Positions 11,431 through 46,700 of a stretch of DNA of 64,000 nucleotides are shown in pieces. A model generated the notes under the pieces. That model made no database searches. It was not told the DNA's origin and saw nothing but the letters and a program-made list of their open reading frames with translations. The position numbers and the translations under genes are program-made. Source of the stretch: Blasia pusilla (taxonomy: Eukaryota). The DNA lies in contig CM114271.1 in NCBI GenBank assembly GCA_050084515.1, forward strand, positions 15,748,001 through 15,812,000. The letters run 5' to 3'. Numbering within the stretch: position 1 is the stretch's first letter; every line of letters starts with the position of its first letter.

Positions 11431-11602
11431 TTTTTTTTTTCACTCCATTTTTCCAAATCTTTTCTTGCATTTATAGAGAAGAAGAGTTTTGGAAGTTCTT
11501 TATTACTGGCTAGTAGACAATATTGTAGCAACAAGTATATGGTTTCCTTGCAATACAAATATGGCTTTGTCATCCATCAATGAGTAACATATCTATTGGT
11601 AG

Positions 11603-12168
11603 TGTCGTACGCATACACATCGCTACACAACATACATTGCTCTCACCGAGCACACACATAAACACGCACGATCCCATGCTAACTCATGGGAACTTTGTTG
11701 AGCCTCTTGGCATGAGGTGGCGGAGCTATGGTCCTCCTTACCTTGTGTGTGTAACCCAAACCTTTCATTAGAAAAGTGGGTTTAGTTTGACATAAGAGAG
11801 AGTTCACACCATGGAGAGCTTGGTGTGAGATGTGTTGAGAGATCTACTTGATTTATAAAGAGAGAATGAACTCTCAAACTCTCTCTCTTGGAGGTATATC
11901 CCCTTCCTTCTCCAAAGCTCTCTCCTCGGTAACCTATGCTCGCAGGTCATCTCCTTGGCTCTTGACCTGTTGTAGTGGGTCAATGGCCATTTTCCAAAGT
12001 GGAAAGTCAACTATACTCCAAATGGAAATGAGCCGAAATGAACGGGAAACCTACTCTCGCAGGTTACCCGTGGCCTCAGTAGGTCATCCTTGACCTTCTG
12101 AGGCTATCCTCCAGTATCTCTGAAGGTACTCTACTAGATCTTGCCCATCTATCCTAAAAGATGCGACA
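11603..12168 (-). mobile_element. Short A+B terminal-repeat-only derivative (solo unit) of the copy A/B subfamily
   Basis: On the minus strand it starts TGTCGCATCTTTTAGGATAGAT (matches the 13412 terminus) and ends TGTGTATGCGTACGACA (matches 22591-22607). There is no coding DNA and no clear TSD. Confidence 0.85.
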
Positions 12169-12540
12169 ATCGTTACAAACTATGGCACATGGGTTTCATT
12201 ATGGAGTATCACATATAGTCAAGGAACTTCTTTAACTATATTGAGAATTTGGAAGGTGGGGAGGATTTGATTAGTGACGTTCTTCTGAAGAGGAAATTTG
12301 AGGATATGGAGGCACATTACAAAAATACGCTTAATATGAAGCCATCACAACATATACATATAAAAAATTGATAAAAAGTGCAAGTGAGAACATAAGTTGT
12401 CATTGGTCAATGCTAGGAGACAAGCACCAAAAGAAGAATGTTACTTTCATCTACTTGAGGCATAACTTATGTCGGCTTCGCTATGTAGATGGATCTTCCA
12501 AGAATATTTCTTGCTAGAAATATTTGAGTTATGTGATGAG

Positions 12541-15759: not shown

Positions 15760-18700
15760 CATCACGGCGTCCTTTTGGGACTTTGAGCGGCGAGGTGGTG
15801 GACCTGAGAGTAGCTCTAGAGGGTTGATCCGGATTGGTGCAAGGTTTTGAGAGTCTCCATGTGAGAGACCACCTCGATCTCTTTCTGTGTCGTCTTCAAA
15901 CAAGGGGGAGAGTATAGAGGAGTGTGCTAATGATCCACCTTATACATTGAGTGGTCCTAAGAGTTGGGCGTACGAGATGGACGACCGAGATAGAGGACCT
16001 GGTAGGTTTTTGGATGCTATAGGCACTACAGAGCTACACGACTTCATCGTGGAGTTTAGGAGTTGGTATGACTCACAACGGGCTAGGAACTCCAGAGAGT
16101 TCAACCGGCTTACAGCATGGAACGGAATGTTCTAGCACTTAGAGGGAGCACCCATGGACGATTACCATAAGTTCTTGCAGAGATATACCCATGAGATTGA
16201 GGCCTGGAGACTCTACTATGACCCACACTATGTGTCATGGACTGAGACGTTTCCCGATGAGGAGGAGGAGTCAAGAGAGGCTTCTTCCTCTTTCGTGAGT
16301 GATGTGGTAGGAGGGATGACTCGCACTAGAGCAGTTGCACCGTCTAGTCAGGTCCGTCCCAAGTTCAACCCCGTGGTTGAGTTCTTTGCGGAGTTGAGGA
16401 CGGGCTACCAAGGGTACGGACGGAGAAGTTGCGGAGCATCCACGACTTCCAGAGGCACCCAGGTGAGAGTTTGCATAAGGCCTATACCCGCTTGCACAGG
16501 TTGATTAATGTCACTTAGGAGGCGATAGAGGCTCAGACTATCCAGTCATGATACGCGATGCTAGACTAGACCCTGCGGACACGGGTGAGGGAGGGGGTGC
16601 TTCTTATGAACACCTCCCCTATGTTGAGAGGTGTTTTAGGACCGCCAAGAACATTGAGCGGAACATGGCGGAGGAGACCGTAGCCACCATGGGTTTAAGG
16701 CTAGAGCAATCACGATTGCCTGCACCACGAGTGCATCAACGTGGATTCCGAGATAGGTATGAGGCACCACAAGCTTAGGGAGGATATCGGGAGACCCTGC
16801 CATAGAGACGTGCTCCTTCATATGCGGCTCAGCAGCAGCCCCCTATGATTATTTGTTGGTCATGTGGTGAAGCCCATCATCAACGCGATTGCACTCGTCA
16901 GGGTCATGGACGCGTGCCTCTCCACGGAGGAGGAGATGATGCTACACCAAGAGGTTATCAGTGTGACTATTGTCAAAGGTACACTTACACATGCGTTAGG
17001 TGTTTCAGATTGCACCTTGATTTTCGTCCGGACCGAGAGCCAGAGAGCACACTAGAGCGAGTTGCAGGTCCGGGTGGGCCTAGAGGTGGTGCATCAGAAG
17101 GCCCCGTTGGGTGACGAGGAGTTGGATTCGCCCAAGGGGGTGGTGGAGTTTCCCGTGGAGGAGGTAGAGTCCCACCACCTAGACACGTCGAGGGAAACGC
17201 CGGACGTGAGGCTTGGATAGCTGCTCAGATACAGCAACTACAATAGTAGATTGCAACTATGGCATTGAGGTTACCCGATGCCGGATCCGTGGCATCGACG
17301 TCTTATGGAGCTACCAGAGATATGGAGGATCTTGGTTGGATGTGGGGGGTTGCCCAAATATAATTCATCATAGTTGTTACACGTGGAGCAGTCGTAGAGT
17401 TGGATCCACACCAAGGAGGAGCCAGGAAATAGATCAGGCTTTCTCAATCCTTCACGTTGTCTGAGGCGATGAGAACCCCATCGATGGGTCCTGATCAGAG
17501 TTCCCAGAGAGTGGGTGATGTTGTTGGTGTGCAAGCACGAAGGGCGATGGGAGAAGCAAGTGCGACGACTCCTATTGTTGATGCTAAGGAGGAGCATGTG
17601 TCGAGCACGTTGTTGGGGGCGGCCATTGTTGTGTACCGCGCTCCTTTATTTTCTGCTTCCGATGTTATGACTTTGGGAGGTACGTCCGCTGAGGTTTTTT
17701 GGCTGGCCGCTATGCTTTGTGAGCGTGGAGTTGGAGTTCTTGCATCACGTTTAGAGGTGATTGCAGAGGAGGTGATGGATCTGCCCTTGGAGCTGATGTT
17801 TGGGCCATCCACGTCAGATTCATGGTAGGCTGCAGCTGCTAGGATGGCGGAGATGCCCACTAGACCCGCGATAGAGCGTGCCATGGCTTCTCCTGGTGTT
17901 GTTTTGCTGGATAACTGGGGGAGGAGGTCTTCCATATGGTGAGTCCATGAGGTAGAGCTTTTAGTCCGCAGCGCGTCTTGTTGGATTCAGGAGCACAATC
18001 CCTGATGTTGGGGAAAGCGACATCAAGAGGTTTGGGCCTGATAAGAGGCAATGTGGAGCGTTGTCCATTCCAGATACAAACATCCTTGGGTGGACTGAGT
18101 ACCACACAGTATATTACCCGACAGGAGATTGTGGTGAGGATTCGCCTAGGACATCCTATAGATGAGTCCGTGGTGCGAGCGAAGGCGATAGTGATTGATG
18201 GAGAGTCCTACGACGTCTTGGTTGGTAGAGCTGTGTTGTACCCAATGGAGTTTTCCCTGGATTATTGGGAGGAGTCAGCGTCCTACAGAAAAGGATGGCA
18301 TTCAAGTGATGGGCAACTTAGCTCATTACCCGATTGATTCCCAAGTGCACTGATCGAGCACCGGCCAGGAGAGATGGCGACCTTAGTAGCATTTAGCAAC
18401 GCCATCACTTGGCCTAGTGATTTGATTGAGGGACACGTCCATGTAGAGGACACTCCTGTTCCTGAAATTTCTATGGAGAGGAGTGTCATGGTAGCCCCAT
18501 CAGTCCATGGAGGAGATATGCCGCTTTGGGGCTCGATTGAGGAGTTTCGACACTTAGCCATTGACCATGTGGAGACCGCATGGAGGGAGACGTTTACACC
18601 AGAGCGTGACGGGTCAGAGGAACCCAAGGTAGCCGAGAGTGCTATGATGACCCCTTTGGACACCACCCCAATTGTATGGTGCATCCTAGAGGAGGATATT

Positions 18701-21700
18701 CGGGTGTTGAATCTCTTTGGAGGGATCATCACTGGGTTAGCTATTTTTTTGCAGGCAGAAGTACGCGTGCAGCAGTACCTATATGTGGAGATTGATGATG
18801 TTGCGAGGCACACTTCACTTCACCATGTGGCACAGTTATGCCTCCGTTTTCCCAACTTGTTGTCTGCGCCCCCTGTCCAGGGATACTAGAGTTTCCTACC
18901 GAGGGATATTTTATTGTGGGGGGCGCAGTACTTGGAGCGGGTAGAAACCATAGACTTGGTCATTGCTGATTGGCCATGTCAAGGCCACTCGAATGCTAGA
19001 TGGAGTAGCAGATTAGTTGACTCGCGGTCCTTGTTGTTATGGGGGATGATGCGGATCTTGCGATATTCATAGGAGCATTAGTCTCGTTCTCCAGCATACA
19101 TTCTAGAGAATGTGTCGCTTTTGGGCGATTCGAGGTCCCGCGTGGTGACGAGTGCACATCAGGTGCGTGCATGGATAGGCCCGGAAGTGTTGTTGGATGC
19201 GGCAAGTATAGGTTCACGAGCACATTGCCCGCGTCTTTGGTGGACCAACTTGGTGCCACATGAGGTTTTGCGAAGGGCGCATGCGAGAGTGGAGCGTCCC
19301 TTCCATTTGTTGGTGGATTCTATTGTGGATGCACATCGTCGATCACACACAGTGAGGTACGATGATCAACCGCCATTGGCTATGGTCAATAGGATTGGCA
19401 TGCCGCGAGCAGACTTTCCCACATTGGTGAGTTTTCCCGCTTCCTATGCATTCAAGAAGGCCGCGCCAGGCTTGGTTTGGGATGACTAGGTGCAGCGGTT
19501 GGTAGAACCCAACACTGATAAGGGAGAGCGAGTGATGGGATTCCCCACAGGAGTGACGGCAATATCATCACTATCAGAGGCATCACAACGTCATGTCTTT
19601 GGTCACGCAATGGACCTGAACTTCTTGACATGGATTTTCAGCTTAGGAGTAGTTGAGAAATGTCGTTTGAGGTTGCAACAGATTACAGCTGTTGCGTTTG
19701 TGAGCCCCATGCCTACCAAGATGGTTGAGGAAGTGGCTAGGGATGAGACGCGAGGAGATCGACACACCAAGGATGATTGGGAGAGACACCCTTGGACTTC
19801 TTGGGATTTTTTGCAGGTAGGCCAGGAGATGGTAGCCACAACATTGAGCGTGGTTCCGAGTACTGCATATAAAGATGAGATTTTGCAGTTAGCTGCAGGA
19901 GAGCAGTCGAGTTCTGTTTCCCGAGACAGGGTTGCACCATAGCAGCCACCTATACCCGCGCCCGAGAGTCCTACCTTAGTCACAATGGAGACTTGGGAGC
20001 GAGACATGGGCTCTAAGTTGACAGGAGGAGAGCGGCGCCAAATACATCAATTCCTAAGGAGTTATAGGAGTTGTTTTTCATTTAGCATGCAAGAATGGGG
20101 TAAGCTGAAGGGTCTAGGGATCCGCATTGAGTTGTCGAGTGACACGCTGATCTTCCGACGATCCTACAGGTACAACGACATGGAGAAGGCTCTGATTCAG
20201 AGTAGGAGCCAAGACTTGGTTGGAGCAAGACTAGTGGAGATGTCGCATGGAGAGTATGCATCTGCCACTGTCATGCCCGCCAAGAAGGATGTGCATGGAA
20301 ACTGGACAGATAGGCGGATGTGTGGAGATTACAGACCTATTAATCGGTAGACAAAGTCCGATAGGTATGCCATGCTCACCCCTTAGGAGATCTTTGATGC
20401 CATTGGGTATGCAAAGGTCTTCAATTCATTGGATTTGCGAGCCAGATACCATCAGCTTCTTATTAGATTGGAGGACATGCAGAAGAGGGTATTTTGGGGC
20501 ATCGATTCTCATGAGAAGGATTATTTGTACCAATGACGGTTCTTACCATTCAGGTTAAAGAACATCCTGGTTGAGTTTCAGAGGGTTATGGATAGGATCT
20601 TGGCAGGTTTGGATTTTGCTAGGTGTTATATTGATGACATCGTAGTCTTTAGCGCCACGGTTCAGGAGCATGAGCGACATCTAGAGGAGGTGTTCCGATG
20701 ATTGCAGTGACATGGGCTAAAGCTACATTCAAGAAAGTGCAAATTCTTCTACAACCAGATTGAGAACTTGGGTCATACGATATACCTAGAGGGCCTTGGG
20801 TGCAGGAGACAAAGGTAGAGGCTATTTCACGCATTCCACGCCCTACAGATGTGAGTATAGTTCGTGCATTCATGGGATTGGCGAACTTCTATAGACGGTG
20901 CGTCAAGGATTTCAGTTTGATTTCGAAGCCGCTAACCTTGTTGACCAAGGTGGATCAAGAGTGGCACTGGGGGGATGAGGAGGAGAGAGCATTTCAGCTG
21001 CTCAAGGATAAATTGACGTCCGCGCCCATATTGAAGAGACCGATCAGGGGGGATCCTTTCTAGTTGCATATTTATTGGAGCATGTAGGGCTTGGAGTTGT
21101 GCTCCTCCAAGATGATGATGATGGTAGAGAGCTCGTGGTGGAGTCACTTGAACAACGCTGTAGAGGCAAAGTATGGCTCGTATGAGGGTGAGTGCTTGGC
21201 TGCCATGTGGGCTGTCGTACATTTAAGGTGTTATTTATTCGGAGTCCCCTTGACCATCATTACTGATCATCAGCCATTTAAGTGGTTGATGGAGTCCGAC
21301 AAGCTTACAGGGAAGCTTGCGAGGTGGGCTCTTTTATTGCAAGAGTATAACTTCCAGGTGGTGCAAGACCTGGGATGCTCAACCAGGATCTAGATGGTTT
21401 GAGCCGTAAGCCATGCCTGAGTGAGCGAGATGCAAGGGTTTAGGGTTGATGAGGAGTTGGCATGGTGAGAGTGATGAGGATTTGGTGCTAGGATGGCACG
21501 CGTCAACCTATTTGGGTTTGTTGGCTATGGAGAGCCAAATTTCTGAGACTTCGATGGCGAGGTCTAATGGAGAGTCCTTAGATCCAGAGGCCAGTGAGGA
21601 AACGACAAGTGGCCGAGATATTCATGACGATGGAGTGGTCTTGGAGTACCTGCGTACTGGTATGCGTCGCAAGCACAATGGGTGCTAGACAACGGGATCG

Positions 21701-22320
21701 GATCCTAAAGCAAGCGAGACGGTTCCGGTGGGAGAGGACACATGTGTTGCGAGTTTGGGAGGATGGTAGAGTGCGTGTAGTGCCTCATCCTTTGTAGAGA
21801 GCACATTTGATGTGTCATGCCCTCGAGGAGTTGGGTCATTTTGGAGTGAAGCGGATATACAACCTGCTCCAAATACATTATTAGTGATGAGGCATGCAAA
21901 CTAACGTTCAGCAGTTTGTTGCCACGTGCATGGTGTAATCGGGTCCGAGCATCGTTCAATGCTCGACTCCACAGTTGCATCCACTTCCAATCATGGGTTT
22001 AGGTTATAGATGGAGTTTGGATTTTGCAGGACCTTTGCCTTTGATAGAGTGCCATAGTTGTTAAGTGTTGGTGATGGTCGAGCACTTCTCGAAGTGATAG
22101 AGTTCGTTGCATTGCGTGACAAAGCAAGTGAGGGAGTAGCGTATGCCTTTCTAGATTGACAGTTAAGTCATTACGGCACATCAACTCGACTGACCAATGT
22201 ACAGAGTTTCGCGGGGAGTTTCAGGCCTTGTGTGATCAGACACTAATTGACCACCGCATCACTTGGACAGATTGACGACCGTACCACTTGGACAGATTTG
22301 GCGAGATCATCCTAATTCTG
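15760..22320 (+). pseudogene. gag-pol polyprotein of copy B (multiple stops and frameshifts; integrase C-terminus/PHD deleted)
   Basis: ORF fragments from 15887 to ~22260 reconstruct the Gypsy domain order with an extra methyltransferase. Homology to copy C breaks after the DHRTT..DHP motif (~22260-22310). Confidence 0.9.
18698..19650 (+). pseudogene. DNMT3-like C5 cytosine DNA methyltransferase domain inside the retrotransposon pol (copy B)
   Basis: In-frame motifs, reading through stops: I IRVLNLFGGI; II YVEID; IV IDLVIADWPCQGHS (PCQ at 18974-18982); VI YILENV; VIII LDAASIGSRAHCPRLWWTN; IX-X ERVMGFPTGVT...RHVFGHAMD. Confidence 0.9.
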
Positions 22321-22633
22321 ACTTGTGTCTATGACATGGATGACAAGAAGGCGACTAACGATGGGGCCACATGAGCACCCAAACTTTCTGCTCTTAGCGT
22401 CCGAGAGATGTATGTCATGGTAGGTAGGGATAGATGGCTATCTGGAGTTAGAGGGACCTAACCACCAGCTAGGGGGCCGATTGGAGATATTTTGGTACTT
22501 CTCGTCTCGTTGTTTGGATGCCATGAGTTAGCATGGGATCGTGCGTATTTATGTGTATGTTTGGTGACAACGATGTATATTGTATTGCGATGTGTATGCG
22601 CACGATAATGATTTTTAGTTCAACTTAAGTGGG

Positions 22634-28000: not shown

Positions 28001-30840
28001 TACGATGTGATCGCCAATGATAGGAACTCTAATCATCATTCTTATTGTCTTTGCTCATTGAATGTACTCATGTCATTGCATGGATGCAAACTCAATCCTC
28101 TAGCCATGATTTTCATTATGTGAAGTCATTGAATGTACATGCATATATCATTGTATATTCATCCTCTTAAGCATGGAGATGGTGTCAATTGTGAGAAAGA
28201 CACTTGCATGTCATGTTTGGATGTAGATTAGGAAAGTCAAGTAGCACTTAGAGCCCCTAAAAAACTTGATCCATATAATATATTTCAGGGATTTGAAAAG
28301 GGGGAGATTCATGAGTGAAATGGATCCATGCATTGGATGAGATTTGATAATCCTAGCACTAGTGAATAGTATTAAAGCCAATATATTAGATACTCCAATC
28401 ACACAAGACGAATGATGCAAAAAAAGAATATCTATATGTATGTACAAGATTTGTATAAAATGGACACTCAGTTTTGTACATATTTTGCAAATCTATCTTA
28501 TATTACTAGCATGCATCTAATGTGTGATATATGCATATTTCGAAGCTTTAACTCATTATCTCTTAGGATTTGAAGGACTTCTCATAGATGATTTATATGC
28601 TCCTCTATGGTGTAACTATAGACTAAGATATCATCTAAGAATACAATGACAGACTTTTCTAAATATGGACAAAAGATATCATTCATTAGGCCCATAAAGG
28701 TTGCAGTTGCATTAGTAAGACCAAATGGCATGACTAAGTATTCAAAGTGTCCATACCTAGTACGAAAAGCAGTCTTATGTATATCTTCATCCGCAATCCA
28801 AATTTGGTTGTAGCCGCTTCTAAGATCAAGTTTGGTGAAGTATTTTGCTCCTTGTAGCTGGTCGAACAAATCATCCATTCTTGGTAATGGATATTTTTTT
28901 TGACTATTTGTTGATTCAATGCTCGATAATCGATACACAGTCGCATGCTTCCATCCTTCTTTTTCACAAAAAGTACAGGGGCTCCATATGGCGAGACGCT
29001 TGGTTAGATGAAGCCTTTTTGCAACATCTCCTCCACTTTGGCTTTGCATTCTTCTAATTCCCTTGGAGCTAAGCAAGAAGGAGCCGTATATGGTGGTGTG
29101 CTTCATAGAAGGACCTCAATCTTGTGGTCTACTCTCTATTTGGATGGTAACCCTGATGGTAAATCATTTGGGAATTCATCTTTATATTCCTCTAATAGTT
29201 CTCTCAATTTGTGTGGTACCTCTGAATATTTTTTCAAACCATCAACACTTATTAAACCTAGGAAATATAAATCTTGATGTTTGATGGCGGTTTCTCTTAT
29301 TACATATAGGGGTAGGATTCTCGGACGTGATCTGACTCTATCTCTGTAAAGCTTCCACTCTCGGGTCTTCACAATCTTTTTCCTCCAATCTATCTCTAGA
29401 TTATACTATTTTATCCAAGGCATTCCCAAGATAACATCATAATGTGCTAATCTAATGACCTTCATCTCCAACTCTTCTTGATACTTTCCTATCCTCAACT
29501 CTACCCTTCGAGGAAGCTTCTCAATCTTTTCTGTTTGCCCGTTTGGAAATTCTACCTCTTTTTTTATCCCTCTCTAAAGCTAAGCCCAATTTCATTGGTA
29601 TGGCTCTTGAAAGGAAGTTTTCTGTTGCCCCAGGATCAATCAACACTCTAACTTGGGATCCTTCTACTTCCCCATCTATAACAATGAGATGTGTTTCTCC
29701 TCTCTTCAAACCATTTAGCTCCATATTTTCGTCTCAACCCTCGTATTTCCTCTTTTTGTTAAAACCAGTATATCTGCGAGACGCAATTAGTGGTGGTTGG
29801 ATTTTCCCTAAGGTCCGCCTTCTTCGTCATCTTCTTGCATGTATCTTCCTTCAAGATGATTAAGAGGGCGACGATATGGCCTATTTTTTACCCTAAGAAG
29901 ACGATAATTAGTGGCAATATGACCATATCTACCACGCTCAAAATATTGGCGTGTATTTCTTCGGACTTGGAATTCTCTCCCTCCTCTAGGAACCCTCAAC
30001 CCATCAGTTCAAGGAGCAATCCCTTGTATGTCGGAGTTCCAATCTCTCTCCATTGGCAGCCTTCCATTATACCTTGGCGGTGCATAACCATCTCGTTCTT
30101 GAAGGTTATCCAACTCCATGGATGTAGATCCGTAGTGATTGTTCATGGAAGCAACCACCTCTCCTCCTCCTTCGTACACACTTGCCATACGTTGGCCACA
30201 TGGGATTGCTTCATTGACATCTTTTGGGTTGTCTCAAATCACCTCTTGACGCACCTTCCTCTTCAAACCTTTCTTGAACACATCGAGAGCTTCTGGCCCA
30301 CTCATGTTGCGGATCTGTATCTCCAAGTCACGAAACTCTTTGATGTATTCCTCCACAATACCTTTATGCTCCAGTGGCCATAATTTTATTCTAGGAGTGA
30401 AGATTGGATCCACAGCTTGGAAATTGGATCCACAAGATTGGACCCACAGCAAGGATAGCAGCCCTTGCTTCATTCCGCTCCATGTGATTTGTTGAGTTGT
30501 TTCAATCAAGGATCTTTTCCATCCTTGATACCATGTCAATGCTCAATCGGTTAACAAAGATCTTATGAACATCCGTGCAATATGATCATCAATATTGAAA
30601 AGGGATAAATGGATTTCTATCTGAGTGATCCAACCCTCTAATACCCCCATTGCTTGACTTCCTTTGTACGGTTCTACTTTGCATGCTTTGATCATTTTCA
30701 ATATCAATGATGCTTGGACATTCATCTCCATCAATCTTTATGTTGTTTGGGCCTGCAATACTCGTGCCCTTAACATTTTGTCACTCTCCCCACTCACAAG
30801 TCACAACACTCATGGTTTCCATCTCCATCCCACCTATCAT

Positions 30841-32035: not shown

Positions 32036-32537
32036 GATGGTTACAGGTTGTTGCCTCTCGTTTGGAGGTGATTGTTGAGGAGGTGGTGGACCTACCCTTG
32101 AAGCATGTGCTCGGGATGTCCTTCACATAGTCATGGTATGTTGCAGCAGAAAAGTTGGTAGATATCCTAGCTAGGCCAGCAATAGGGTATAAGAGTGAGA
32201 GAGATGGCTTTCTCAAGCCATCTTTCTCATGTTAAGCCATAGGAACCCCTCTTTTCCATAGACGTATGTGAGTGTGTAGGAGTTAGGGTGCTAGCATCCG
32301 GATTTCCTCATAGTAGAGGATGGATGTGGTTCGATATGCCGATGCAGATTCAAGAGTGGAGTTTTAGGCCGGGTGAGCCAATTTTACTAATCTGATTTTG
32401 TTATGGGGTCTCAATGTATATGTGTGAGTTTGTTTGGTTTATGGATGGATCGACCCGTGTGTTGGGAAGATCGGTGTTGTGTGGTGTGTAGATATGACCA
32501 TCAATGTGGTTGTGTAGCAATGTGTATACGCACGACA
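32036..32537 (+). mobile_element. Internally deleted fragment of the DNMT-Gypsy family (gag-pol scrap plus partial A and complete B repeat)
   Basis: 32036-32185 matches B ~17745-17880. 32195-32537 matches the reverse complement of copy C's A and B repeats and ends TGTGTATACGCACGACA. Confidence 0.8.
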
Positions 32538-33900: not shown

Positions 33901-33985
33901 GATGGACTTAAAGAGCGTCAAAGGATGCCTTAATTTTCTAGATAATTTGATTTGGTGAAAATTCTTAGAGATAAGCTCTTGAAGT

Positions 33986-34123
33986 TGTCGTGCGCATACA
34001 TATCGCTACACAACATACATCGCTGGACACATCTCCACCACACAACACCGATCTTCCCCACACACGGGTCGATCCACACATGTACAAAAATCAACGCATA
34101 CATATACATGGAGATCATACAAC
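33986..34123 (-). repeat. Terminal repeat B2 of copy C (138 bp)
   Basis: Direct repeat of 34606-34743 with about 11 mismatches. Confidence 0.9.
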
Positions 34124-34603
34124 AAAAATAAAGAGTAGTAAAAATGGCACACCCGGCCTAAAACTCCACTCCTCAATCTACATCGGCATATCGAGCCTCG
34201 TCCATCCTGTGCTATCAAGAAATCCGGACGCTAGCACCCTAGTCCTATCTCATACACATACAAGAGAGGTGCTCCAACGGCCCAACATGAGAAAGATGGC
34301 TTAGGAAAGCCATCTTCCTCTCTTATATAGGGTTGGGAAGAGCCAAAAGGCTCTTCCCCCAAAAATAGCCCTCCCCTTGGTAACCTACGCGCACAGGTTA
34401 CCAAGGGCGGGTGACCTTGGCAACAAGTCACCTGGATGTGAAAGACCTCAACATGAAAGTTGTCGGAAATGACATTCTTGACACAATGGACCTATCCTCA
34501 ACCTCACCCGAAACCATGGGATAAAGTTACACTCAAGATAGTCGGCTGGCTCCTACGCCCTATCCACGATAGATCTCAGCCTATCGGCTACTCAGATGTG
34601 ATA
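34124..34603 (-). repeat. Repeat A2 of copy C (~480 bp)
   Basis: Direct repeat of 43285-43758. Confidence 0.9.
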
Positions 34604-34605
34604 GC

Positions 34606-34743
34606 TGTCGTGCGCATACACATCGCTACACAACATACATCCCTGGTCATATCTACACCACAAAACACCAATCTTCCCCACACACAGGTCGATCCACACA
34701 TGTACAAAAATCAACTCATACACATACATGGAGATCACACAAC
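34606..34743 (-). repeat. Repeat B1 of copy C, immediately downstream of the purine tract
   Basis: On the minus strand it follows CCAGCTAGGGGGGCA (34744-34758) and matches B2. Confidence 0.9.
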
Positions 34744-34819
34744 TGCCCCCCTAGCTGGCAGTTGGATCCTTCCAACTCCAGATAGAAAATATCATATCTC
34801 TATGACATGACCTACTACC

Positions 34820-34966
34820 CTATACACATCTCAGACACATCCATCGTCCCGTGGGAACCACATCACGAAGGAGGGTCAGACATGACATATGCCACCCTGG
34901 AGAAAAACCATCACATACCAACATGGTGGCTGCATCCCTCGCAAATCCGCACAACATACATCTCAA
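34820..34966 (-). other. PHD finger (C4-H-C3) at the integrase C-terminus of copy C
   Basis: RCMLCGFARDAATMLVCDGFSPGWHMSCLTLLRDVVPTGRWMCLRCV matches PHD spacing (one Cys mutated to Phe), including the MLxCDxC..xH..C and P.G.W.C..C hallmarks. Confidence 0.85.
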
Positions 34967-37900
34967 GCCTGCAAATACCACTGCCAAGCTCGGATCCACC
35001 ATTCCGTCTACGTTCGGAAGATGACATGGCGCACGATTGCGCACATGATCCTTCCAAACCATACCATCCCGTCCCTCCAACATGAGGACTCCGGTCGGTA
35101 ATATCTCGCGCACACGTAGGATCGTGCGCCTTGTAGTGACATCTAGCGTCGTGGGTGTCGCCTGCTGTAAATACACGTAATCTCTAGGATGAAACCTCAT
35201 AATCCTTGGACGATAATCTCCTCCACAAATGGTCGCGTACCTCAATGTATCTCTATGTTGAGCAATAGCTAAGTTCTCAAAGGCCATAGGCATAACTCTA
35301 CGAAAAACCTCCGCCCTCTGAGAACATGCTTGTACCCACACATCTGGATCATCAAGATCTAACACCTCCGCCATGTCACGTCGAATCGCTGCAGGTAAAT
35401 TTGGCTCTCTCCCAAAGAGCAAAAATTGTGGTGAAAATGATGCCAAGGATGCCTACCGACTAAAGCGATAACCCATAGCCAACCATGGCAAGTGTAGATC
35501 CCACTCCCTCAACTGTCCTCGCTGCAAGCCATACTTGCGCAATCCTCTCTTCACCGTCCGTACCACTCTCTCCGCCAACCCATCCGCCTCAGGATGATCT
35601 CTGGACGTGGTGCTGTGATCTATCAACGCTTGATCACACAAGGCCTCAAACTCTCCCCTGAACTCGGTACCCTGGTCAGTCAATACCTCCGCCGGTGCAC
35701 CAAAGTGACTAAGCACATGATCTAGAAAAGCATAAGTTGTTCCCTTGCTCGCCTTGTCTAGTAGTGCCACCAACTCTATCCACTTGGAGAAATGCTCCAC
35801 CATGACCAACACGTACCTATGATGACGCCCCGTAAATGGCAAAGGTCCCGCAAAGTTTAAACTCCACCGATAACCTAAACCCATAATAGGCAACGGATGT
35901 AACTGCGAAGTGGGAGCATTGAAGGATGCTCGCACTCTATCACATACTATACATCTGGCCACAAACTGTTGTACCCCAGTATGCATGTCGTGCCACCAAT
36001 ATTGAATCTGGAGTAAGCTATAAGTACGCTTCAGTCCAAAATGTCCCAACTTCTCATGGGCATGTCGCACTACACGTGCTCGTTGGGAAGGATGAGGTAC
36101 CACTCGTATCCTACCATCTCCCCATACCCGCAAAATGTGAGTCCCTTCCCACCTGAACCTCCTAGCTCTCTGTAGGATCCAATCCCGCTCCCTAGCACTC
36201 ACTATGCTCGCTATGACGCCAGTGTGCAAGAACTCCACAACCTCCACGTCATCATGGATATCATGACCACCTGTCGCCTCCTCACTGACCTCCGGATCCA
36301 AAGACTCATCATCCAACCCCACCACTAGAGTCATCACCCGTGGTTGACCTGCCATAGTCAACCAACAAAGATAGGGAGATGCATGCCAATCGGGCACCAT
36401 CTCCTCATCACTCTCTCCGTGCCATCGAGCTCATGTTTCGTCTCTCTGACTTGGACATGGATTATGACTCAACCCATCCGTATCCTGGTTTATACGACTT
36501 GGCTTAGGAACCACCTCAAACTCATACTCCTGTAGTAATAGAGCCCATCTGGCAAGCTTTTCCGTAAGCTTGTCAGACTCCATCAACCACCTGAACGGCT
36601 AATGATCACTGATAAGTGTGAAAGGGTTGCCGAATAAATAGCACCTGAAATGTGTCACGGCCCACACTGCAGCCAAGCACTCTCCCTCGTAGGAGCTGTA
36701 CTTTGCCTCTGCAATGTTGTTTGATCGGCTTGCGTAAGCCACAACAAACTCCCTCTCCTCGTCATCCCTCTGAGTAAGCACTACTCCTAGACCCAACATG
36801 CTCCAATCCGTATGTAACTAGAATGGGCGACCCCTAACCAGTCTCTGTAAAATGGGTGAGGACGTCAACCTATCCTTGAGCTCTTGAAATGCTCGCTCTT
36901 GATCATCTCCCCACAACCAAACCTGATCAAGTCTCGCCAACAAGGTCAAAGACTTTGCGATCGCACTAAAATCCTTGACATACCGTCGATAGAAGTTTGC
37001 CAGTCCAAGAAATGCTCGGACTCGACTCACATCTGTAGGACGTGGAATCTGTGCAAAAGCCTCTACCTTTGTCTGCTGAACGCCTAACCCACTCGGGTAT
37101 ATGGTGTGTCCCAAGTACTCAATCTGCTCTTGAAAGAATCTGCACTTGCCTGGATGTAACTTCAGTCCATGAAAGTTCAATCGCCGAAATACCTCCTCCA
37201 GGTGTCGCTTGTGCTCCTCAAGTGTGGAATTGAAGATAAGAATATCATCTATGTAACATCGTACAAACTCCAAGCCAGCCAGAATCCTATCCATCACTCT
37301 CTAAAACTCTGCAAGCGCGTTCTTCAACCCAAATGGTAAGAACCGCCACTAATACAAGAAATCTCTCCCGAACCGATCTATCCCCCAGAATGTTGTCTTC
37401 TCCTTGTCCTCCAACCTGATAGGAAGCTGATGATAGCCAGCATGGAGATCTAAAGTACTGAAGATCTTTGCATGCCCTACCGCATCAAAGATCTCCTCAG
37501 GAGTAGGCATGGCATACCGATATGACCTCGTCTGTCGGTTGATAGGACGGTAATCTCCACACATCCGCCTATCCGTCCAATTGCCATACATATCCTTCTT
37601 TGCCGGCATGACTCTGGCATATGCATACTCCCCATGTGATAACTCCACAACAAGTCCTAACTCGTGCTCTGAATCAAGGCTCGCTCCATATCGGAATACC
37701 TATAGGGTCGACCAAAGATCGGCGTATCACTAGCCAACTCAATCCGTATTCCGGGACCCTTCAGCGTACTTGGCCAAGTCTCTCATACTGAAGGCAAAAC
37801 AACTGACATGCCCTCTCAAAAACCTATGAACTCGCCCTCACTCTCCTCCTATCAACTTGAGACCTATCACAGGTTCCCAAGTTTCCATCGTGACCTCACT

Positions 37901-38189
37901 CGGAGAGGACGCAACCTCCGGCTTTGGTTGCTATGTAGCAACCCTAGCCACCTCCGCAACAGCCACTCCACTCTGATCTCCTACACCATGCTCCACATCC
38001 AAAAAAATGAACATGTACTACTCTGGCCGCCTTGGCACTCTCTACTCGAACGACGTCCCAAGAAGTCCATGGGTGCCTATCTCTCCTCGCCTACCAATGC
38101 CTGACCAATGCACTGTCAGACCACTGAGGCAATGGTCTAACTCGTGGACATGACGGCGTGGATGACACTTGCATCCGTCTCTACTCAGG

Positions 38190-39040
38190 CTGACTATCCA
38201 CGTGAGACAGTTGAGGTCCATCGCATGCCCCAACACCTATCTCTGGGATGCCTCACTAATCCCTGACACCGCCGTAGTACCGGTAGCAAATCCCATGGCG
38301 GGCTTGCGCTCATCTGCTGTAGGCTCCTCCAATGCTCCGGTCACCTCATCCCAAATCATGCATGGCCCTCCTTGACGAAAGGCATGGGATGCTGGGAAGC
38401 TCACCAACGTAGGTAAGGCTGCCCTCAACTCCCCCACCCTATTGGCCATGGCCAACGGTGGTCTATCATCCCGTGTCACCACGTGAGATTGTCGCCTTGA
38501 GCCCAAAATAGCATCCACTATGAGATGTGGTGCTCTGTGGACTCCATCGTATGCTCGACTCAGTACCTCTGATGGTATCAGGTTCGTCCACCACAGTCGT
38601 GGATGATGGGCACGTGATCCAACTCTCGCCGCATCTAGCAACACAGTAGGTCCCAACCAGGATCTCACTTGATGCACACTCGTCATCACACGTGCACAAG
38701 TGTCTCCCAATAATGGCACGTTCTCTAAAATGTACGTTGGAGAACATGTCTGACTCTCCTGCAAGTGTCATACTACTCGCAGCATCTCCCAAAACATCCC
38801 TGACCTTGGATCCTGCAATCCAAATCCTTGGCCAGCTGATGAATGACCCTAACATGGCCATCCAGAAATCACCAAATGAATGGTGCCAACTCTATCCAGA
38901 TCCTACACCGCCACCAAAGAGATGTCGGCAGGTAGTGTATGCTGATATCCCCATACTGGAGATATCGGCAACAACTCAGGATACCTCTGGACCAATCTCG
39001 CCGGTGCTAATCCCTCCGAAGAGATCTAACACCCTAACAC
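38190..39040 (-). pseudogene. DNMT3-like C5 cytosine methyltransferase domain of copy C
   Basis: VRVLDLFGGISTG; IHLVISGWPC*GHSSAG..GLQDPRSGMFWE (GWPC at 38852-38863); YILENV; LDAARVGSRAHHPRLWWTN; ERKPAMGFATGTT..LGHAMD. About 100 bp covering motif II is deleted. Confidence 0.9.
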
Positions 39041-42000
39041 CCTCCTTTGGGCACTGCCACACAACGGGTGTGGTATCTAGTGGGGTCAACGTCTCCACTC
39101 CAAGAACCCGATCGCCACGTGACTCTCGCTGCTCCGGGATAAAGGCATGACTCCAGGCCTGCCTCACGAGGTTGTTGGCACTCCTCTGTAGCTCTCGAGT
39201 TGTACCCCACAATGGTGAAGAGGTATCGCCAATATGGGAATAGACACCCGCCATGGCCTGTCTCTCCGTGGGACTATCCGCTACTGGGACATCCTCCGCA
39301 TGTGTTTTCCCCTCCAACAACTCTCCAGGCTAGCTAACACTACCTGTGAAAGATGCCGACGTGGTCACAGACTCGCCTCGTGATCGACCATCTCGTCCCG
39401 TAAACTGCACAGGTAATTGACTCATCCGCCCGTCACCTGACCGCCATCCTAGCCGATAAGCAACGGTCTCCTCCCAAAAGTCAAGGATGAATCCTAGAGG
39501 ATATAACACTGTACTCCCCACCAACATATCGTACGACTCAGCTGGTGTCGTAATCGCACGTGTGCCCACCATAGCACTATCCGTCGCATGCTCCGGCTGG
39601 ACTCTAACAACTATCTCCTGTCAAGTCATATACTACGTGAGTGACACGCCCCCAATCGAGGTCTCTATCTGGAAGGGACAGGGCTCAATGTCGGCCTTTC
39701 GTAACCCCAACGCTAAACACGCCGCCTTCCCTAACATCAAGGGTTGCGCTCCCGAATCAAGTAGGACGCGATGCAGGTGGTATACTGTCCTCGTCGGACT
39801 AACCAAGCAAAATACTCCAGCTTGGTTATCCAGTAACACTACTCCAGGTGTCACCATTGCTCATTCTATGGCCGGTCGAGCTGGCATATCTACCAACTTA
39901 CCCGCCGCCGCATGCCATGACTCTGTGGGGAATGTCCCAAGCACCGACTCTGAGGGCAAGTCCACCACCTCCTCAACTACCTCTAAACAAGAAGCACTCA
40001 TCTCTCCATGCTCACACAATATGGCGGCCAACCGGAACACCTCAGTTGGTCCAACTCCCAACGTCGCCAACTCTATGGCGGAAAATAGTGGAGTCTGACT
40101 CACTCTGGTGGCCACCTCCAACACTATGGTCGACAGTGACTCCACTCGAGCCGCAATAGGAGTTGTCACTCCAACTCCTCATGACGTCGACGCACCTGCC
40201 TGAGCTATAGGCACCGTTGGTCGTCGAGGCACCATCAATGGTGTGTGTAGTTCCTCCGATAATGTGAATGATTGTGGAACCCTGGCCTGCCACCCATCGG
40301 TCCCCTCTGGTGGGTCAATCTCAACTCCACCTCTCCATGGCTCGGTGCCGCTTGCAGCACCCCGAGTCACCACTGCAGCTGCCTCAACCTGGGTTGCACT
40401 ACACTTAAACCCCATACTGGCAAGATCCTCACCCGGATCAGGGTAAGAGGTAGAAGGTGGAGGCACACTAGCTGCTCGCGGCTCCGTGCCTTCCCTAAGC
40501 TGCATCATCATCATCATGGCAGCAATCCTCTCCTCCAACTAATCGATGCGTGAGAGAAGTGCCGACTCTGGTGCTCCTGCTCCATCTCCTCTGCCAGGTG
40601 GTGGTCCTCTACCACCACGTCTAGCACGACCGCCCCCAGGCCCTCGGCCTACCCCTAGACGTGCCTCTCGGCGAAGGTCAAAACACCTATCCCTAGTGTG
40701 ACCATATCTGTGGCAATAGTCAACCTGGTGCTGTGGTGGGGCCATCCTCTGTGGATCTTGAGCAATCGGAGGCGCTCGTAGTCCTCTCCCATGCTGTGGG
40801 CAGTCTCTCTGCCTATGGGCCTCTCCACACGTCCAACAAGACCACATCGGTCCCTGTTGGGCAACATATGTAGGTACGGGTCGTTGCCTCATAGGCTCAC
40901 GGTACCCGCCCTGCTCTCTGGGCACACCAGCCCGCTCCCGTGGTACTGGTGCTCGTTGTGGCATGTGTGGGGTCACCCGCACTCGTGGACCCATCGACTC
41001 TCGAGAAAATCCAGCGGTCACTACTTGCTCCTCACTCATGTTGAGCTCAATATGCTCAGACAACTCAAAGACCACCTTCAATGTGGGCTTCGCAGCGTGA
41101 ATCAGTACCGCATCTCGGACTCTCCTCTGTAGTTCTCGATCTAGAACAGCCGTACCAATACTGGACTGACTGCGCCTCAGTCACTACATACGTAGCAATG
41201 ATCATCCTCCTTATCCGTGTGAATGCCTCTCTCAGACTCTCACCCGATCGTCGCTGAAAATCCTATAGACTCTTCATCTTGTCGGTGCGTACGGCCTGGT
41301 AGCTCTTCCCCAACTGTTGTAAGAACTCCACTGTGGGGCTAAAGCTGGGTGGCCCTCTACCACCAAAGGTCTCTGCCATATCGCTTGTCTCATTGCCCTC
41401 CTCTCCATCTAGCCCCTCCAGGCTGATGGTGTGGGTCTCTCTCCTCTCACAATCCCATCATATGCCTCGCGACTATTAGTGGACACATACCTTGGAGCCC
41501 AATACATCCTCCAGGCATCGATCTCTACTGAATATAGTGATCGAAACTCCATGTAGTCATCCATCGGAGGACCCTCTAAGTGCTAGAACAACCCCTTCCA
41601 TGCCATGAAAGGGTTGAATCGTGTCGAGGTCCGTATCTCCTGGAAAGTCGCACCACGTGTCAAACTCCTGGATAAAATCATCTAAGTTCGATGGTGCCCA
41701 CTGCACCCGAGAAATGACGCATGCCCCAATGGCCCATGTCGTCCATCTCCTGCCAAGTACTACTATCTCTGTCTGCGATCTCGTCACCAGACCCAGTGTC
41801 TAGTGATGACGATCCAACCACGGATGGATGTCGAGGTAGCTCCTCACTGGTAACCCCTCGGTATCTCACTCTACTCCGTGTCACACCACTACCACTGCTC
41901 GCACTACCCCGTTCTTCCGAACCCTGGAAGAACGCCGCGATGACAAACCTTGTCTCACCCGCTCAAGCACTCAGACTCACTGAGAGTCTCCCACACTCCT

Positions 42001-43284
42001 CACTAGCTCACCTATGCTAACATCAATCCCGTGATGACATACCCGGCCTCACGTACACTCAACACTCGGGCTCACCATGAGCCTCCTAAATGACTCACCT
42101 AACCTAGCGACACTCTCCTGTCATACATGCGACCCCTACGCGGAAACCGTTGTATAGCCACCAACATGCTACACATGAAAAGAGTCTACACTCGTCACCA
42201 TCACTACACCCACCTAGCACCAGCTACTACCCGATACCCAACACTCTCAATCACACACGACAAGTGCGGGAAAAGGGACTCGAATGGGTAACTTGATCAC
42301 GCCCTCCAACCTACTGCACCGTCAACACTCACTCCTCCATGTGGTACGGAAACCTCTGCAACACGACACTCTCCTCGACCAACACGTCGATCCTCCCGTC
42401 GGCAGATGCAAGCTACCCATCAACATCACCACGTGCATCTCTACCTCTCGCATTCCATCGCAACTCTTGGCGCAAATCACTCATCTTGACACATGTTGCC
42501 AAAGTAGTAGCAATTCAACCTCTGTCAATGACTTTCAAGCTAGCAAATCCCGCCATGAATCACACTCTCGTCTCTAAACCACCAAGTGCCCAAAATTTCT
42601 CCCATTACGTAACCCAAATCAACTACGTATCTCCCCCAACCACGTATAACTCTACCACGTTGGTCCTAACTACGCTCATCCAACTTACTACGTCGGCCCT
42701 CTCTCTTGCTCCCCGACGTCTCTCCATCTGCCAGATTTCCCATCTCCCGGCCTTCTCATCTGCCTATGGCTTACGGTCCCTGCTTCCTAGTTCTGACTGA
42801 GCGTTCCTTCCTCCGCGCCAGTCCCACTAACCCTAGGTACTCCTTTCCTCCCGCTTTCCCTGCACGCTGCCTTCTGTAGCTTCCCACTTACATCTTGACC
42901 CGTTTCCCTATGCAAGGATGTTGCCCTTACTCCCTTGATCCTTCCACCTACACGCATCCCTATGCGCGTGGGTGCCCCATGGGCGTGGCTTAACCGTCCT
43001 TGATAATCCTTCTCACTAACTCCCAGGTCCGACTTCTCCATCCACGTACCTTCTCTCCTCAAGCGCGCATCCCTATGGACGTGACCCCGCTCTTACCCCC
43101 TTTTGTCTTGGCTGGCAGCTCTTGGGCCCGCGTCTCCCTAGAGCATGCGCGTGGCTCCTTCTGACTCTCCCATCCGGAGCCATCCCCTGGAGACACGTGT
43201 CTCCAGGGGCTCCGGACCAAGGCAACTCGCTTGCCTATCTGCAAACAAGCAATTCCCACTAGCCCCCTAACATCATTCTCATGT

Positions 43285-43758
43285 AAAAATAAAGAGTAGT
43301 AAAAACGGCACACCCGGCCTAAAACTCCACTCTTCAATCTACATCGGCATATCAAACCTCGTCCACCCTATGCTATCAAGGAATCCGGACGCTAGCACCC
43401 TAGTCCTATCTCACACACATACAAGAGAGGTGCTCCAACGGCCCAACATGAGAAAGATGGCTTAGGAAAGCCATCTTCCTCTCTTATACAGGATTGGGAA
43501 GAGCCAAAAGCCTCTTCCCCCAAAAATAGCCCTCCCCTTGGTAACCTACGCGCACAGGTTACCAAGGGCGGGTGACCTGGTCAACAAGTCACCCGGCTGT
43601 GAAAGATCTCAACATGAAAGTTATCAGAAACGACGTGTCTGACACAATGGACCTATCTTCAACCTCATCCCACACTGTGGGACAAAGTTACACTCAAGAT
43701 AGTCCGATGGCTCCTACGCCCTATCCACGATAGACCTATCAGCTACTCAGATGTGACA
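43285..43758 (-). repeat. 5' terminal repeat A1 of copy C (~474 bp)
   Basis: Matches 34124-34603 and is not accompanied by a B repeat. Confidence 0.9.
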
Positions 43759-46700
43759 AAGTGGATCAAGCCCTTTCTTTAATCAATTGATTGAAAGGGG
43801 GAAGAGGAGCCTAAAAATGTTTGGTTTTTGTTGGAAAATTATTAGCTGGTTGGTTGAATAATGCAGCCTCCCATGAAGAAGATCATACACAAGAATATCA
43901 TTTACTAGGTTTAACTTTAAGATATAAGATAGGGTCTCTCCACAAAATAGGTGTAAGTAGGAACCATTTGAGACGAAGGACCTCTAATATGGGTCTAGGC
44001 CATAGAAGGGAAGAGACAAGATGAAAATGGTTGGAATAATATTTGAAGGGCGCAAAAATTGAAATGGCAAAAAGTAGGAAACCCATGGGATGATCTTGAC
44101 ATGTGCCACATAATTCTCTATTACTATTGCAAAGTGTCTCTTCTTTCAAACTCTTCTCTTCTTGGCATCCCGTGTCTCCTAAGCCAAAAAGATCACTCGC
44201 TCTCTCAACCAATAGGATCACTCAAGATCAATAAAAGAGGAGAGAGGTATGTTAAATCCTTAATCACATTTTTTCAAGGGCACCTAATACTAGTTACTAT
44301 TAGGATGATGTATTTCCATATGTTTCTACAACATATGATATGACATCTCATATTTCATTTTTAAAACACATTCGAGAATATTTATTCACGTAGTAACTCA
44401 TTTTCAATCAATAATATAAATTTTCCACAAAGTTGGGGTAAAAATTTTATGATGCTTCACGGCATCATAAAATTTTCAAATTTTAACACTAGAAAAGGAT
44501 TTAGCTCTCACATACCTTTTTGGGGTACACGTCCGATCACAAAATCCAATCGATCGCATGCATTGGTATTAGCCTATTGTAATTTAAATTTCAACTTGTG
44601 TAAGAGGTGTAAGTATAAACACGTAATTCCGAAAGCGAAGTTTCCGTTTAGTATTATTGTGTGGCGATCGTCGTGGGGTGGGTAGGATGTCATCGACTAC
44701 TTTCATGCATGGCTATGGCACACTCCGGGGGTCGCTGTAAATATCCTTAGCAGTTAGTTGCATAGCATATTAAGGTACGTACGTCTCCACATGCTACACA
44801 TCAAGTCATTCCACAAGAGATGGGAGAAATGGAACCCTCGAAATAGGTCAGGCCACGTGGTCCCCATCCAAGATTGCCGAAGGAAACGGTAAGCAAATGC
44901 TTGCAAACAAGGTTCTTGTGACTGCCTTCCTTCCAGAATTAGACAGGATTTAATTCATGAAAGAGAATTTATGTTCAGACAGAAAATGCTTGAAAAAGTC
45001 GTGAGCTGGATGCAGGAAACACAAATGTTCCTAAAATGTGTACATCTCAACGGTGTTGTTTAGCGATTAACGCGCATTCGACGAATTTATTTCGATTGAG
45101 GGACGGCGGAACTCGTGGAGTAACAAATCCCCTCTATCGGAAGAAACTCGTGGAGTTTGATTTGATTCGACTTTTCATGTATGAGAAATCTAGATCGTAA
45201 TCTTTCGGCCGAGCCTGACATTCTGCTTCAGGCGTTGCACGGATTCCACTACGACCACTTCAAGTTGGGACGGGTCCTTGGTCGAACTCAAGTGGAAGAT
45301 TAATTAACTGCAGTTCAAGTGCAAGCAAGCGGGTGGTGCAAGCACTAGGGTGGTCCTGAGATCCGCGTTCATTAGCCACTGAAAAGATCGAGATCTGCAG
45401 CGGGGGTGCGGGGCCAAGCATTTTAGGATCGAGATCAAGGAGTTGGAACTCGAGGACGCTGGAAAGCTGATCGATGACTTCCATGTGGTATGGGCACTGA
45501 GGGTGGAGGTGGAGGCAGTTAAGAGAGACGAAGACAACTGCTCCAGACCTTTCTCTCTCCAAATTAAGCTTTATTTGAGAGGCCGTGCGCGAGTGCAGGG
45601 ATCCAGGACCTGCCGATGCAGCAGGAAAGCGGCCTGCATGACGAGAGTTGGACTGCTGTAGGTCTAGAGCGGGCTACCTACACAGGCGACTGGCTGCATC
45701 AATCCACGCGTTGTAGTTCACCTTACTTTTGGATTCAGATTTCCCTGGTGATCCGTGCCCTACCAACATCACGTGGACACAGTGGCTCTCGTCTTCAGAC
45801 TCGGTTCAAGACTCGACTGTTGGCAGGTATGTGGCAAAGCAAGCACGAATTTGGCACAGGCACCAGTTCGCATGAGCTCAGCGCTGAATCGATACACTCC
45901 ACCAACCAAAGCTCATTGGCATGCTGCTTTATCCCAGTAGTCTGGAATAGCAAGACTTTCTCCGTGGGACAACTAGGACCGGTCATGAAGTGGATTCTCC
46001 TGCGAGTATCGTTCCATGCAGTTAGTTACTCCAAATCAAAAGTCCTTAATTAGCCTTCCAATCGACCGACATAGACCTACGCTAAGCCCCGTCCGCTCAG
46101 CTTTTATCACTAGGAATTAACTTTCAGGCTTCCCCCATAAGCCCCCATATGTTCTAAAATCAAGAACTTCCTCTCAAGATTGACATTTTCGGGACGTTAA
46201 GCGTCGGTAAGAACTCTTTGGACTCGTTAATTTCGTGGGCAGACCCAGTCCTTCAATGATTACAACGTACGTACAAACGTTAACTTATCCGGTTGCGTCC
46301 CATCCATGGCCCGAGAAATTTGTCGAGCTCTTGGCAAAATTAGTCTTCGAGATTTAGGAATGTGTTGAAGATTAAGATTGAAATCTTGAAGTGTGCAGCT
46401 CTCCAGGGATCGAGAACCAAAACACCCAAGTACCAGAACATACCACTCGATCCGAAATAACTAAGTTGATCTCACTGCGTAGACATCCATCCGAAGGTCA
46501 AGGACATATGTAGGCCTCGGGGTTCTTAATTTTTTAATCTACATTTCTAGATCTGTAGAGCTATTACTAAGAGGAAACGATCGCGGAAGAGGCGTTTTTG
46601 AGCGATGACGGAAATACGTTGGGCACGTGGGTTATCCACCATGGGAACTTCACAACTGATTCAGAACTCTTGGCAACGTTTCACGAAGGTATCTGTGCAT

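Follow-up and report, generated by a model that had tools for sequence, protein, structure and literature searches.

Does a retrotransposon that encodes both a histone-reading finger and a DNA methyltransferase (DNMT) use the first to direct the second? The question is posed by a stretch of 64,000 nt (the window, to which all positions refer), in which the minus-strand translation of 34966–34820 gives a PHD finger followed by a TAG stop. The preliminary description of this sequence had proposed that the finger selects targets by chromatin state and that the element methylates its own new insertion. The finger belongs to a dead element from a large, old, green-lineage Ty3/Gypsy clade with split repeats and a DNMT3-like domain. 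In this branch of the clade, ORF1 encodes gag, protease and DNMT, and reverse transcriptase (RT), RNase H, integrase and PHD lie past an in-frame TAG-CARYYA. From these sequences, the two modules most likely act in sequence, a reading held with moderate confidence: an abundant, ORF1-borne DNMT would work on particle cDNA, and a scarce integrase–PHD would dock on chromatin. Why retrotransposons carry DNMTs has been a question since 2018, and the sole described Gypsy case was an algal family of few copies whose enzyme tested negative in yeast; the present clade brings the question into land plants, including Marchantia polymorpha.

Architecture of the element

The element (copy C) occupies 33986–43758 on the minus strand and comprises 9,773 nt with TG...CA ends. 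It is decayed and approximately 90% identical to its sister copies. A 4-bp target-site duplication, AAGT on the plus strand, flanks it at 43759–43762 on the 5′ side and at 33982–33985 on the 3′ side. Its coding domains are, in order, gag, protease, DNMT, RT, RNase H, integrase and PHD. The gag and aspartic protease region (39000–41725, minus strand), delimited by tblastn with the Marchantia protein P0004, is interrupted by stops and frameshifts; gag has two CCHC knuckles, near 40838 and 40715, the protease motif LLDSGA lies at 39764, and protease Pfam matches were found in relatives of the element. RT and RNase H, with stops, have approximate limits of 36450–37924 on the minus strand (PF00078 and PF17919, with PF17917 in the copy L076). 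The H2C2 zinc domain and DDE core of the integrase follow at 35591–36091 on the same strand (PF17921 and PF00665, both over cut-off).

The terminal repeats are split: an A precedes the internal region, which is followed by B, two bases, and a second A and B. The 5′ terminal repeat A1 (43285–43758, 474 nt) is 91.8% identical to A2 (34124–34603); B1 (34606–34743, 138 nt), which ends in GACA, is separated from A2 by a 2-nt spacer (34604–34605), and B2 (33986–34123) forms the 3′ terminus, all on the minus strand. This DIRS-type arrangement is present in 17 of the 22 copies with both ends in view and likewise in the metagenome loci L101, L115, L128 and L130; the remaining five copies have the short form A–internal–B. 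Across the 22 copies the 4-bp target duplication is exact in 17, has one mismatch in three and is missing from two. The short-form copies (L050, L056, L062, L071 and L076) keep the duplication, four exactly and one with a mismatch; B–B recombination or direct integration could have given rise to them.

The internal junction (34609–34600 in the window) has the palindromic sequence GACA-GC-TGTC or a decayed version of it, and it joins the two end sequences of the element with a 2-nt spacer. A 13-letter pattern of the junction is found without mismatch at 1,574 places in the genome, versus 22 for the reversed control; the palindrome was also found in the metagenome loci L101, L115 and L141, and in decayed form in L128. 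Cuts after CA on both strands of the junction would produce processed integrase ends, a hint that the intermediate may be circular. The junction dinucleotide is AC in 11 cases, GC in nine, GT in four, AT in two, and CC and TC in one each; a mechanism based on a variable dinucleotide was considered and rejected, the counts being better explained by decay of an original GC that stands in a CHG context. Inspection by eye after A1 (43230–43290) gave no obvious tRNA primer-binding site. A short G run precedes B1 (34744–34820).

A PHD finger at the C terminus of the integrase

The finger (34960–34826, minus strand), with its stop at 34822–34820, matches PF00628 with 25.2 bits (E = 1.7e-05) against a cut-off of 24. 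It passes by only 1.2 bits because the copy is damaged: the codon of the fourth Cys is TTT (Phe, 34906–34904), which leaves seven of the eight zinc ligands. The preliminary description had reported a C4HC3 PHD motif ending the integrase of this copy; the PHD itself is borne out, also by the PF00628 search named there as a check, whereas the literal C4HC3 motif is not present here. The finger is in frame with the integrase, and a premature stop at 35455–35453 separates the integrase core from its tail.

In the copies L041 and L076, one open frame spans the integrase core and the PHD, and the PF00628 scores of the finger are 41.8 bits, for an undamaged copy, and 41.3 bits. All eight C4HC3 ligands are kept in 27 of the 29 other best-matching PHD loci, two of these 27 also having a stop inside the finger. 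Copies selected on the DNMT rather than on the PHD carry the finger in 20 of 20 cases, with all eight ligands in 14. ESM features of the finger match PHD clusters (0.95 and 0.90), and its sequence matches 77 PDB sequences, the best matches including KDM5A/B PHD1, PHF21A/BHC80, AIRE, CHD4, DPF and BAZ2. No chromo family was matched in the Pfam search of natural copies, the integrase ending in a PHD instead. The PHD is thus a genuine, family-wide trait rather than a chance insertion, damaged in the window copy. Both an HMM match and the presence of the finger in other family members, on which its earlier identification had been made to depend, are found.

The pairing of PHD and DNMT in one retroelement, also proposed from the window alone, is well supported. 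The DNMT was found in 18 of 20 PHD-anchored copies, which with the DNMT-anchored set gives both domains in 38 of 40 copies; among metagenome loci, of which 80 were fetched on the DNMT, all eight PHD ligands are present in 34 of the 39 with sequence beyond the integrase.

Histone H3-contact residues and insertion sites

According to the KDM5A PHD1 paper, unmodified K4 is read by BHC80, AIRE and KDM5A PHD1. The paper describes D312 and W335 as most important for H3 binding, and single D292A or E305A substitutions cost about six-fold each. In the 20 DNMT-anchored copies, the equivalents of D312 and W335 are Asp in 20 and Trp in 18, and those of L309, P331 and G333 are kept in 19, 19 and 15, respectively. 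The residues of the A1 pocket (L309, P331, G333 and W335) and of the R2 anchor (D312) are therefore retained in the family, as is the P-x-G carbonyl loop, which is kept across the clade. The equivalents of the acidic H3-contact residues D292, E305, D306 and D315, in contrast, are non-acidic in all 20 copies, being Ala, Thr or Ser. A sister family, described below, agrees with the window family at the KDM5A-mapped positions tallied. Among 54 distant PHDs of the clade, the D312 equivalent is Asp in 51 and the W335 equivalent Trp in 53, and the acidic pocket is variable: 16 are acidic at the E305 position, and in 36 the residue immediately preceding the first Cys is acidic.

The H3K4me3 readers that use an aromatic cage have Trp two residues before the His. 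Gly occupies this position in 40 of 40 copies and in 49 of the 54 distant PHDs, so that the cage is absent, and ING, BPTF and TAF3 do not occur among the best 60 of the 77 PDB matches. The near-fixed Asp and Trp beside a variable acidic pocket point to a PHD that, in this branch, would serve as a tether on the H3 N terminus with weak or no reading of K4. The proposal that the finger reads the H3K4 state is accordingly not favoured by its residues: the A1 and R2 anchors are kept, and the K4-pocket equivalents are not acidic.

Crude insertion tests gave no sign of target choice by chromatin state, which had also been suggested. In a weak comparison made on sequence, 6 of 20 insertion sites lay in clade DNA versus 97 of 320 control pieces, and 100 sister-family sites along the contig C1 were indistinguishable from uniform (Kolmogorov–Smirnov P = 0.08, also a weak test).

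It may be asked whether the finger is still a histone reader at all, or now acts as an integrase tail that is stabilised by zinc and whose binding partner is DNA, a different protein or the integrase multimer. The replacement of all four acidic contact residues, two of which matter six-fold each in KDM5A, would fit such a role, as would the net basic core (two acidic and four basic residues) and the lack of insertion bias. We nevertheless consider it unlikely, since the D312 and W335 equivalents and the P-x-G loop are kept both in the family and across the clade.

An in-frame stop separates DNMT from integrase and PHD

Approximately 85 codons past the DNMT, the frame of the window copy reaches TAG CAA CCA (37925–37933, minus strand), which ends ORF1 and fits the UAG-CARYYA readthrough signal. 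The site of the ORF1-end stop was located in 27 of 41 sequences, as TAG in 24 and as TAA, TAC and TAT in one each, and a CARYYA hexamer follows the site in all 27; it follows only 38 of the 4,810 TAGs of the same DNA, ORF1-end sites included. ORF1 proteins of Marchantia terminate about 82 aa beyond the DNMT. In copy B of the window, TAG CAG CCA lies between DNMT and RT at 19940–19948 (plus strand), the two window sites belonging to families 72% apart. In the sister family, CARYYA fits 7 of 13 copies, with CAGCCA in six, and CGACCA is apparently present in five. In seven metagenome loci (L110, L111, L118, L125, L126, L145 and L166), TAG is followed by CAGTTA, CAATCA or CAACTA, which brings the spellings kept to five (CAACCA, CAGCCA, CAGTTA, CAATCA and CAACTA). 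L110 has, in one frame, 1,369 aa with protease and DNMT, a single TAG, and 1,047 aa with RT, RNase H, integrase and PHD. The hexamer has exceptions: in 15 close metagenome loci the context is CAACCC-like, and several of these have TAA.

UAG-CARYYA is described as the type I readthrough signal of plant viruses such as the tobamoviruses, and stop-separated ORFs are described in the retroelements Tca2, SIRE1 and MuLV (PMC5382211 and PMC2194720, in part). The clade shares with the tobamoviruses the in-frame UAG followed by CARYYA, and with these retroelements an in-frame stop between ORFs, which here lies after protease and DNMT and before RT. No report of a CARYYA stop in a Gypsy–DNMT3 element was found in the literature searched, which covered few subscription papers and may show one in figures or supplements. 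On this sequence context, the ORF1-end stop is probably leaky, with readthrough a small part of the time. An ATG 15 codons downstream makes re-initiation possible in place of readthrough. In the branch with the order RT–RNase H–DNMT–integrase, a single in-frame TAG followed by ACAGCC lies between two long ORFs upstream of RT (L154, 2796–2798; L156, 1397–1399), perhaps a different readthrough context.

The position of the stop bears on whether finger and enzyme are coupled, the PHD picking chromatin without H3K4 methylation and bringing the DNMT to methylate the insertion in place, like the ADD domain in animal DNMT3. In the window the two domains are approximately 3.2 kb apart with the TAG between them; the DNMT is in frame with RT but before the conserved stop, and most DNMT molecules would therefore carry no PHD. 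Together with the whole of RT and RNase H, this stop stands against coupling in this branch. So does the Pfam search, which returned no ADD family match next to the DNMT, and the analogy with DNMT3 drawn in the preliminary description is not supported here. In other members of the clade the DNMT lies inside the Pol ORF; its displacement relative to the PHD suggests that fusion is not needed. The steady co-occurrence of the two domains would suit coupled action, as would the acidic residue before the first Cys in the majority of distant PHDs; a readthrough product would also hold both domains until cut, and in many relatives RT–RNase H–DNMT–integrase–PHD is one ORF. Coupling fits better where the DNMT abuts the integrase, and as a general account it is doubtful.

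The DNMT3-like domain

The C5 cytosine methyltransferase domain lies at 38186–39053 on the minus strand, with motifs I at 39029, IV at 38863, VI at 38731, VIII at 38605 and X at 38233, and is broken in the window copy by a deletion of about 90 nt, a frameshift and stops. PF00145 was over cut-off in three of three natural copies tested, and all 29 PDB matches of the domain are to DNMT3A, DNMT3B or DNMT3C. The SAM-binding, catalytic and Arg motifs are conserved across the homologues at approximately 35% identity, with the catalytic Cys in 85 and the motif VI Glu in 88 of 89. An IMG/VR scan returned 62 loci, in all of which the methyltransferase was matched weakly and in part, with E values no better than 8e-9.

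The rates of C-to-T change, taken from 39 copies of this family alone, are 0.089 in CG, 0.090 in CAG, 0.112 in CTG, 0.064 in CCG and 0.021–0.031 in CHH. They fit the CG and CHG pattern that plant hosts write on transposons and are not assignable to the enzyme of the element. This host-like decay, together with the failure of an algal relative's DNMT to methylate in yeast, gives no backing to the proposed self-methylation of new insertions. That the DNMT writes no DNA methylation in vivo, and instead binds or methylates element RNA or binds DNA without marking it, is quite improbable: the inactivity of KnitGypsy-Dnmt3 in yeast, the RNA binding raised by de Mendoza et al. for LINE-borne DNMTs (PMC5890265, in part), production at Gag level, which would suit RNA packaging, and decay with no unusual methylation context would all agree with it, but the catalytic motifs are conserved despite the low identity and, in the same yeast assay, SymbioDIRS-Dnmt3 did methylate CG and human DNMT3B failed too.

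Range and conservation of the clade

The nearest named proteins are from Calypogeia (67% identity) and Marchantia (66%), which suggests a bryophyte host and probably a liverwort. The named relatives, from Marchantia, Calypogeia, Riccia, Sphagnum, Pleodorina and a set labelled Tetstr1, which we take to be Tetraselmis, reach from liverworts and Sphagnum as far as chlorophytes; none of the named matches to the clade carries the name Klebsormidium. Marchantia polymorpha contributes a cluster of 18 close proteins, among them several full-length ORF1 products of 1,278–1,281 aa. A clade DNMT with 47% identity (P0185) is filed under a bacterial metagenome-assembled genome (Obscuribacterales), which is probably eukaryotic contamination.

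Two domain orders occur, DNMT before RT and RT–RNase H–DNMT–integrase–PHD. They are largely separate in a quick integrase tree and in a FastTree DNMT tree, both midpoint-rooted and implying no order of events. Between the window family and the sister family, the PHD has a pN of 0.145 with pS saturated at 0.775, and dN/dS is 0.12 for the integrase, 0.18 for the DNMT and 0.10 for RT, each comparison using one reference copy per domain and the copies not being independent; a noisier pool gave 0.12 (four pairs), 0.36, 0.33 and 0.34. By these sequence comparisons, PHD and DNMT are both conserved between families. A within-family selection test was rejected because differences were near equal at the three codon positions, as in decay after insertion, and the between-family comparisons were used instead.

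Abundance, age and expression

First-look searches of the genome gave 11,345 candidates with the PHD and 11,418 with the DNMT, which are not copy numbers. Across 40 samples of 5 kb taken at even spacing, matches to the clade cover 19.6% of bases (bootstrap 12–29%), a figure that includes protein-level RT matches possibly from other Gypsy elements; the PHD was found in three samples and the DNMT in four. The clade thus fills roughly a fifth of the genome. The A repeats within one copy are 88–97% identical (16 copies). The 150 nearest PHD matches include no intact copy, and their longest open frame is 665 aa.

In three RNA runs from one study, approximately 1,500 reads each match the element, with the first mate nearly always on the plus strand, which for most stranded libraries corresponds to the sense strand of the element. 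Only one or two reads per run are 99% alike and about 70% have loose ends, so that the RNA comes from relatives and not from the window copy. One loose end led to the sister family, which has 594 exact 27-mer matches, is approximately 72% identical and has the same layout. It is likewise decayed, with no intact copy and a longest open frame of 449 aa among 16 stretches. Its stretches L285–L300 lie on C1, and the A repeats are up to 98.9% identical in L298.

A proposed sequence of action

The reading in which the modules act one after the other can be set out as follows. Rare ribosomal readthrough of the stop would place the DNMT at capsid level and the integrase–PHD at enzyme level, a dosage split deduced from the readthrough motif. 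The DNMT would work independently of the PHD, on newly made cDNA inside the particle or shortly afterwards, and copies would arrive pre-methylated; the idea of copies arriving methylated is that of de Mendoza et al., for DIRS elements (PMC5890265, in part). From its residues, the PHD would tether the integration complex to nucleosomes via A1 and R2 of the free H3 N terminus, preferring tails without K4 trimethylation or ignoring K4, for weak and broad targeting. Much DNMT and little integrase–PHD is what the conserved stop predicts, and this separates methylation of cDNA in the particle from methylation at the landing site. Chromatin maps exist for Marchantia polymorpha.

More tentatively, the clade, from chlorophytes to bryophytes, may run a two-tier programme, in which a leaky UAG yields a capsid-level DNMT3-type enzyme that methylates cDNA before landing, and a scarce integrase–PHD docks on K4-unmethylated H3 tails and cuts the GACA-GC-TGTC of a DIRS-style circle. 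We regard this full combination as unlikely. If it were true, bryophyte methylomes could in part be a direct product of such elements.

Relation to known elements

PHDs in Gypsy elements, Gypsy–DNMT3 elements and elements with a chromodomain and a DNMT are already published, and the PHD itself is the least new part. By shared features, set against its published description, KnitGypsy-Dnmt3 of Klebsormidium nitens (de Mendoza et al. 2018, PMC5890265, in part) is a probable relative of the window element. It is described as an acquisition in the K. nitens lineage that has a low copy number and encodes its DNMT within the Pol ORF, and its negative yeast result is called inconclusive by the authors. 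Common to both are the Gypsy domains, a DNMT3-related domain free of introns, and split repeats of the DIRS type. The window clade differs in its thousands of copies, its bryophyte-type host, a DNMT that ends ORF1 before TAG-CARYYA, and the integrase PHD; the main text of PMC5890265 has no occurrence of PHD, which its figure could show.

The EpiLTRs of Cymbomonas and Euglena (bioRxiv 10.64898/2026.05.21.726589, in part) are likewise LTR elements that encode a histone reader together with a cytosine methyltransferase. Their reader is a chromodomain, their enzyme is sister to DNMT4 and they add an adenine methyltransferase, unlike the PHD and DNMT3-like domain seen here; their authors call them distinct from streptophyte Gypsy–DNMT3. 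The Chlamydomonas element Gypsy-7a_cRei (PMC9940879, in part) has a PHD in Gag-Pol, proposed to steer insertion, and its insertions are 2.6-fold enriched between genes. Its listed domains include no DNMT, and the legend places the PHD before the integrase rather than after it. REM1 is another PHD-bearing Chlamydomonas Gypsy element, according to papers that cite it, and PHDs in retrotransposons are described as widespread in the sources consulted. Chromoviruses also have a histone-reader module at the integrase C terminus, a chromodomain in place of the PHD; the text available of the chromovirus paper (Neumann et al. 2019, PMC6317226) has no occurrence of PHD or methyltransferase. No report of a Gypsy element pairing PHD with DNMT3, or of its occurrence in land plants, was found in the literature searched, most subscription papers lying outside it; a PHD could be shown in the figures or supplementary material of PMC5890265 or of the 2026 preprint.

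Other elements in the window

Copies A (1–5660, minus strand) and B (13411–22600, plus strand) belong to a further family of the same clade. Copy B has a DNMT at 18686–19645 and an RT, and its integrase stops near 22272 without a PHD. Isolated fragments of A/B-type terminal repeats at 32187–32537 and 11600–12170 are probably solo repeats or truncated copies. An AT-rich RT fragment at 28543–29115 (minus strand; PF00078, 80.4 bits), 36% identical to the RT of the clade, belongs to another retroelement.
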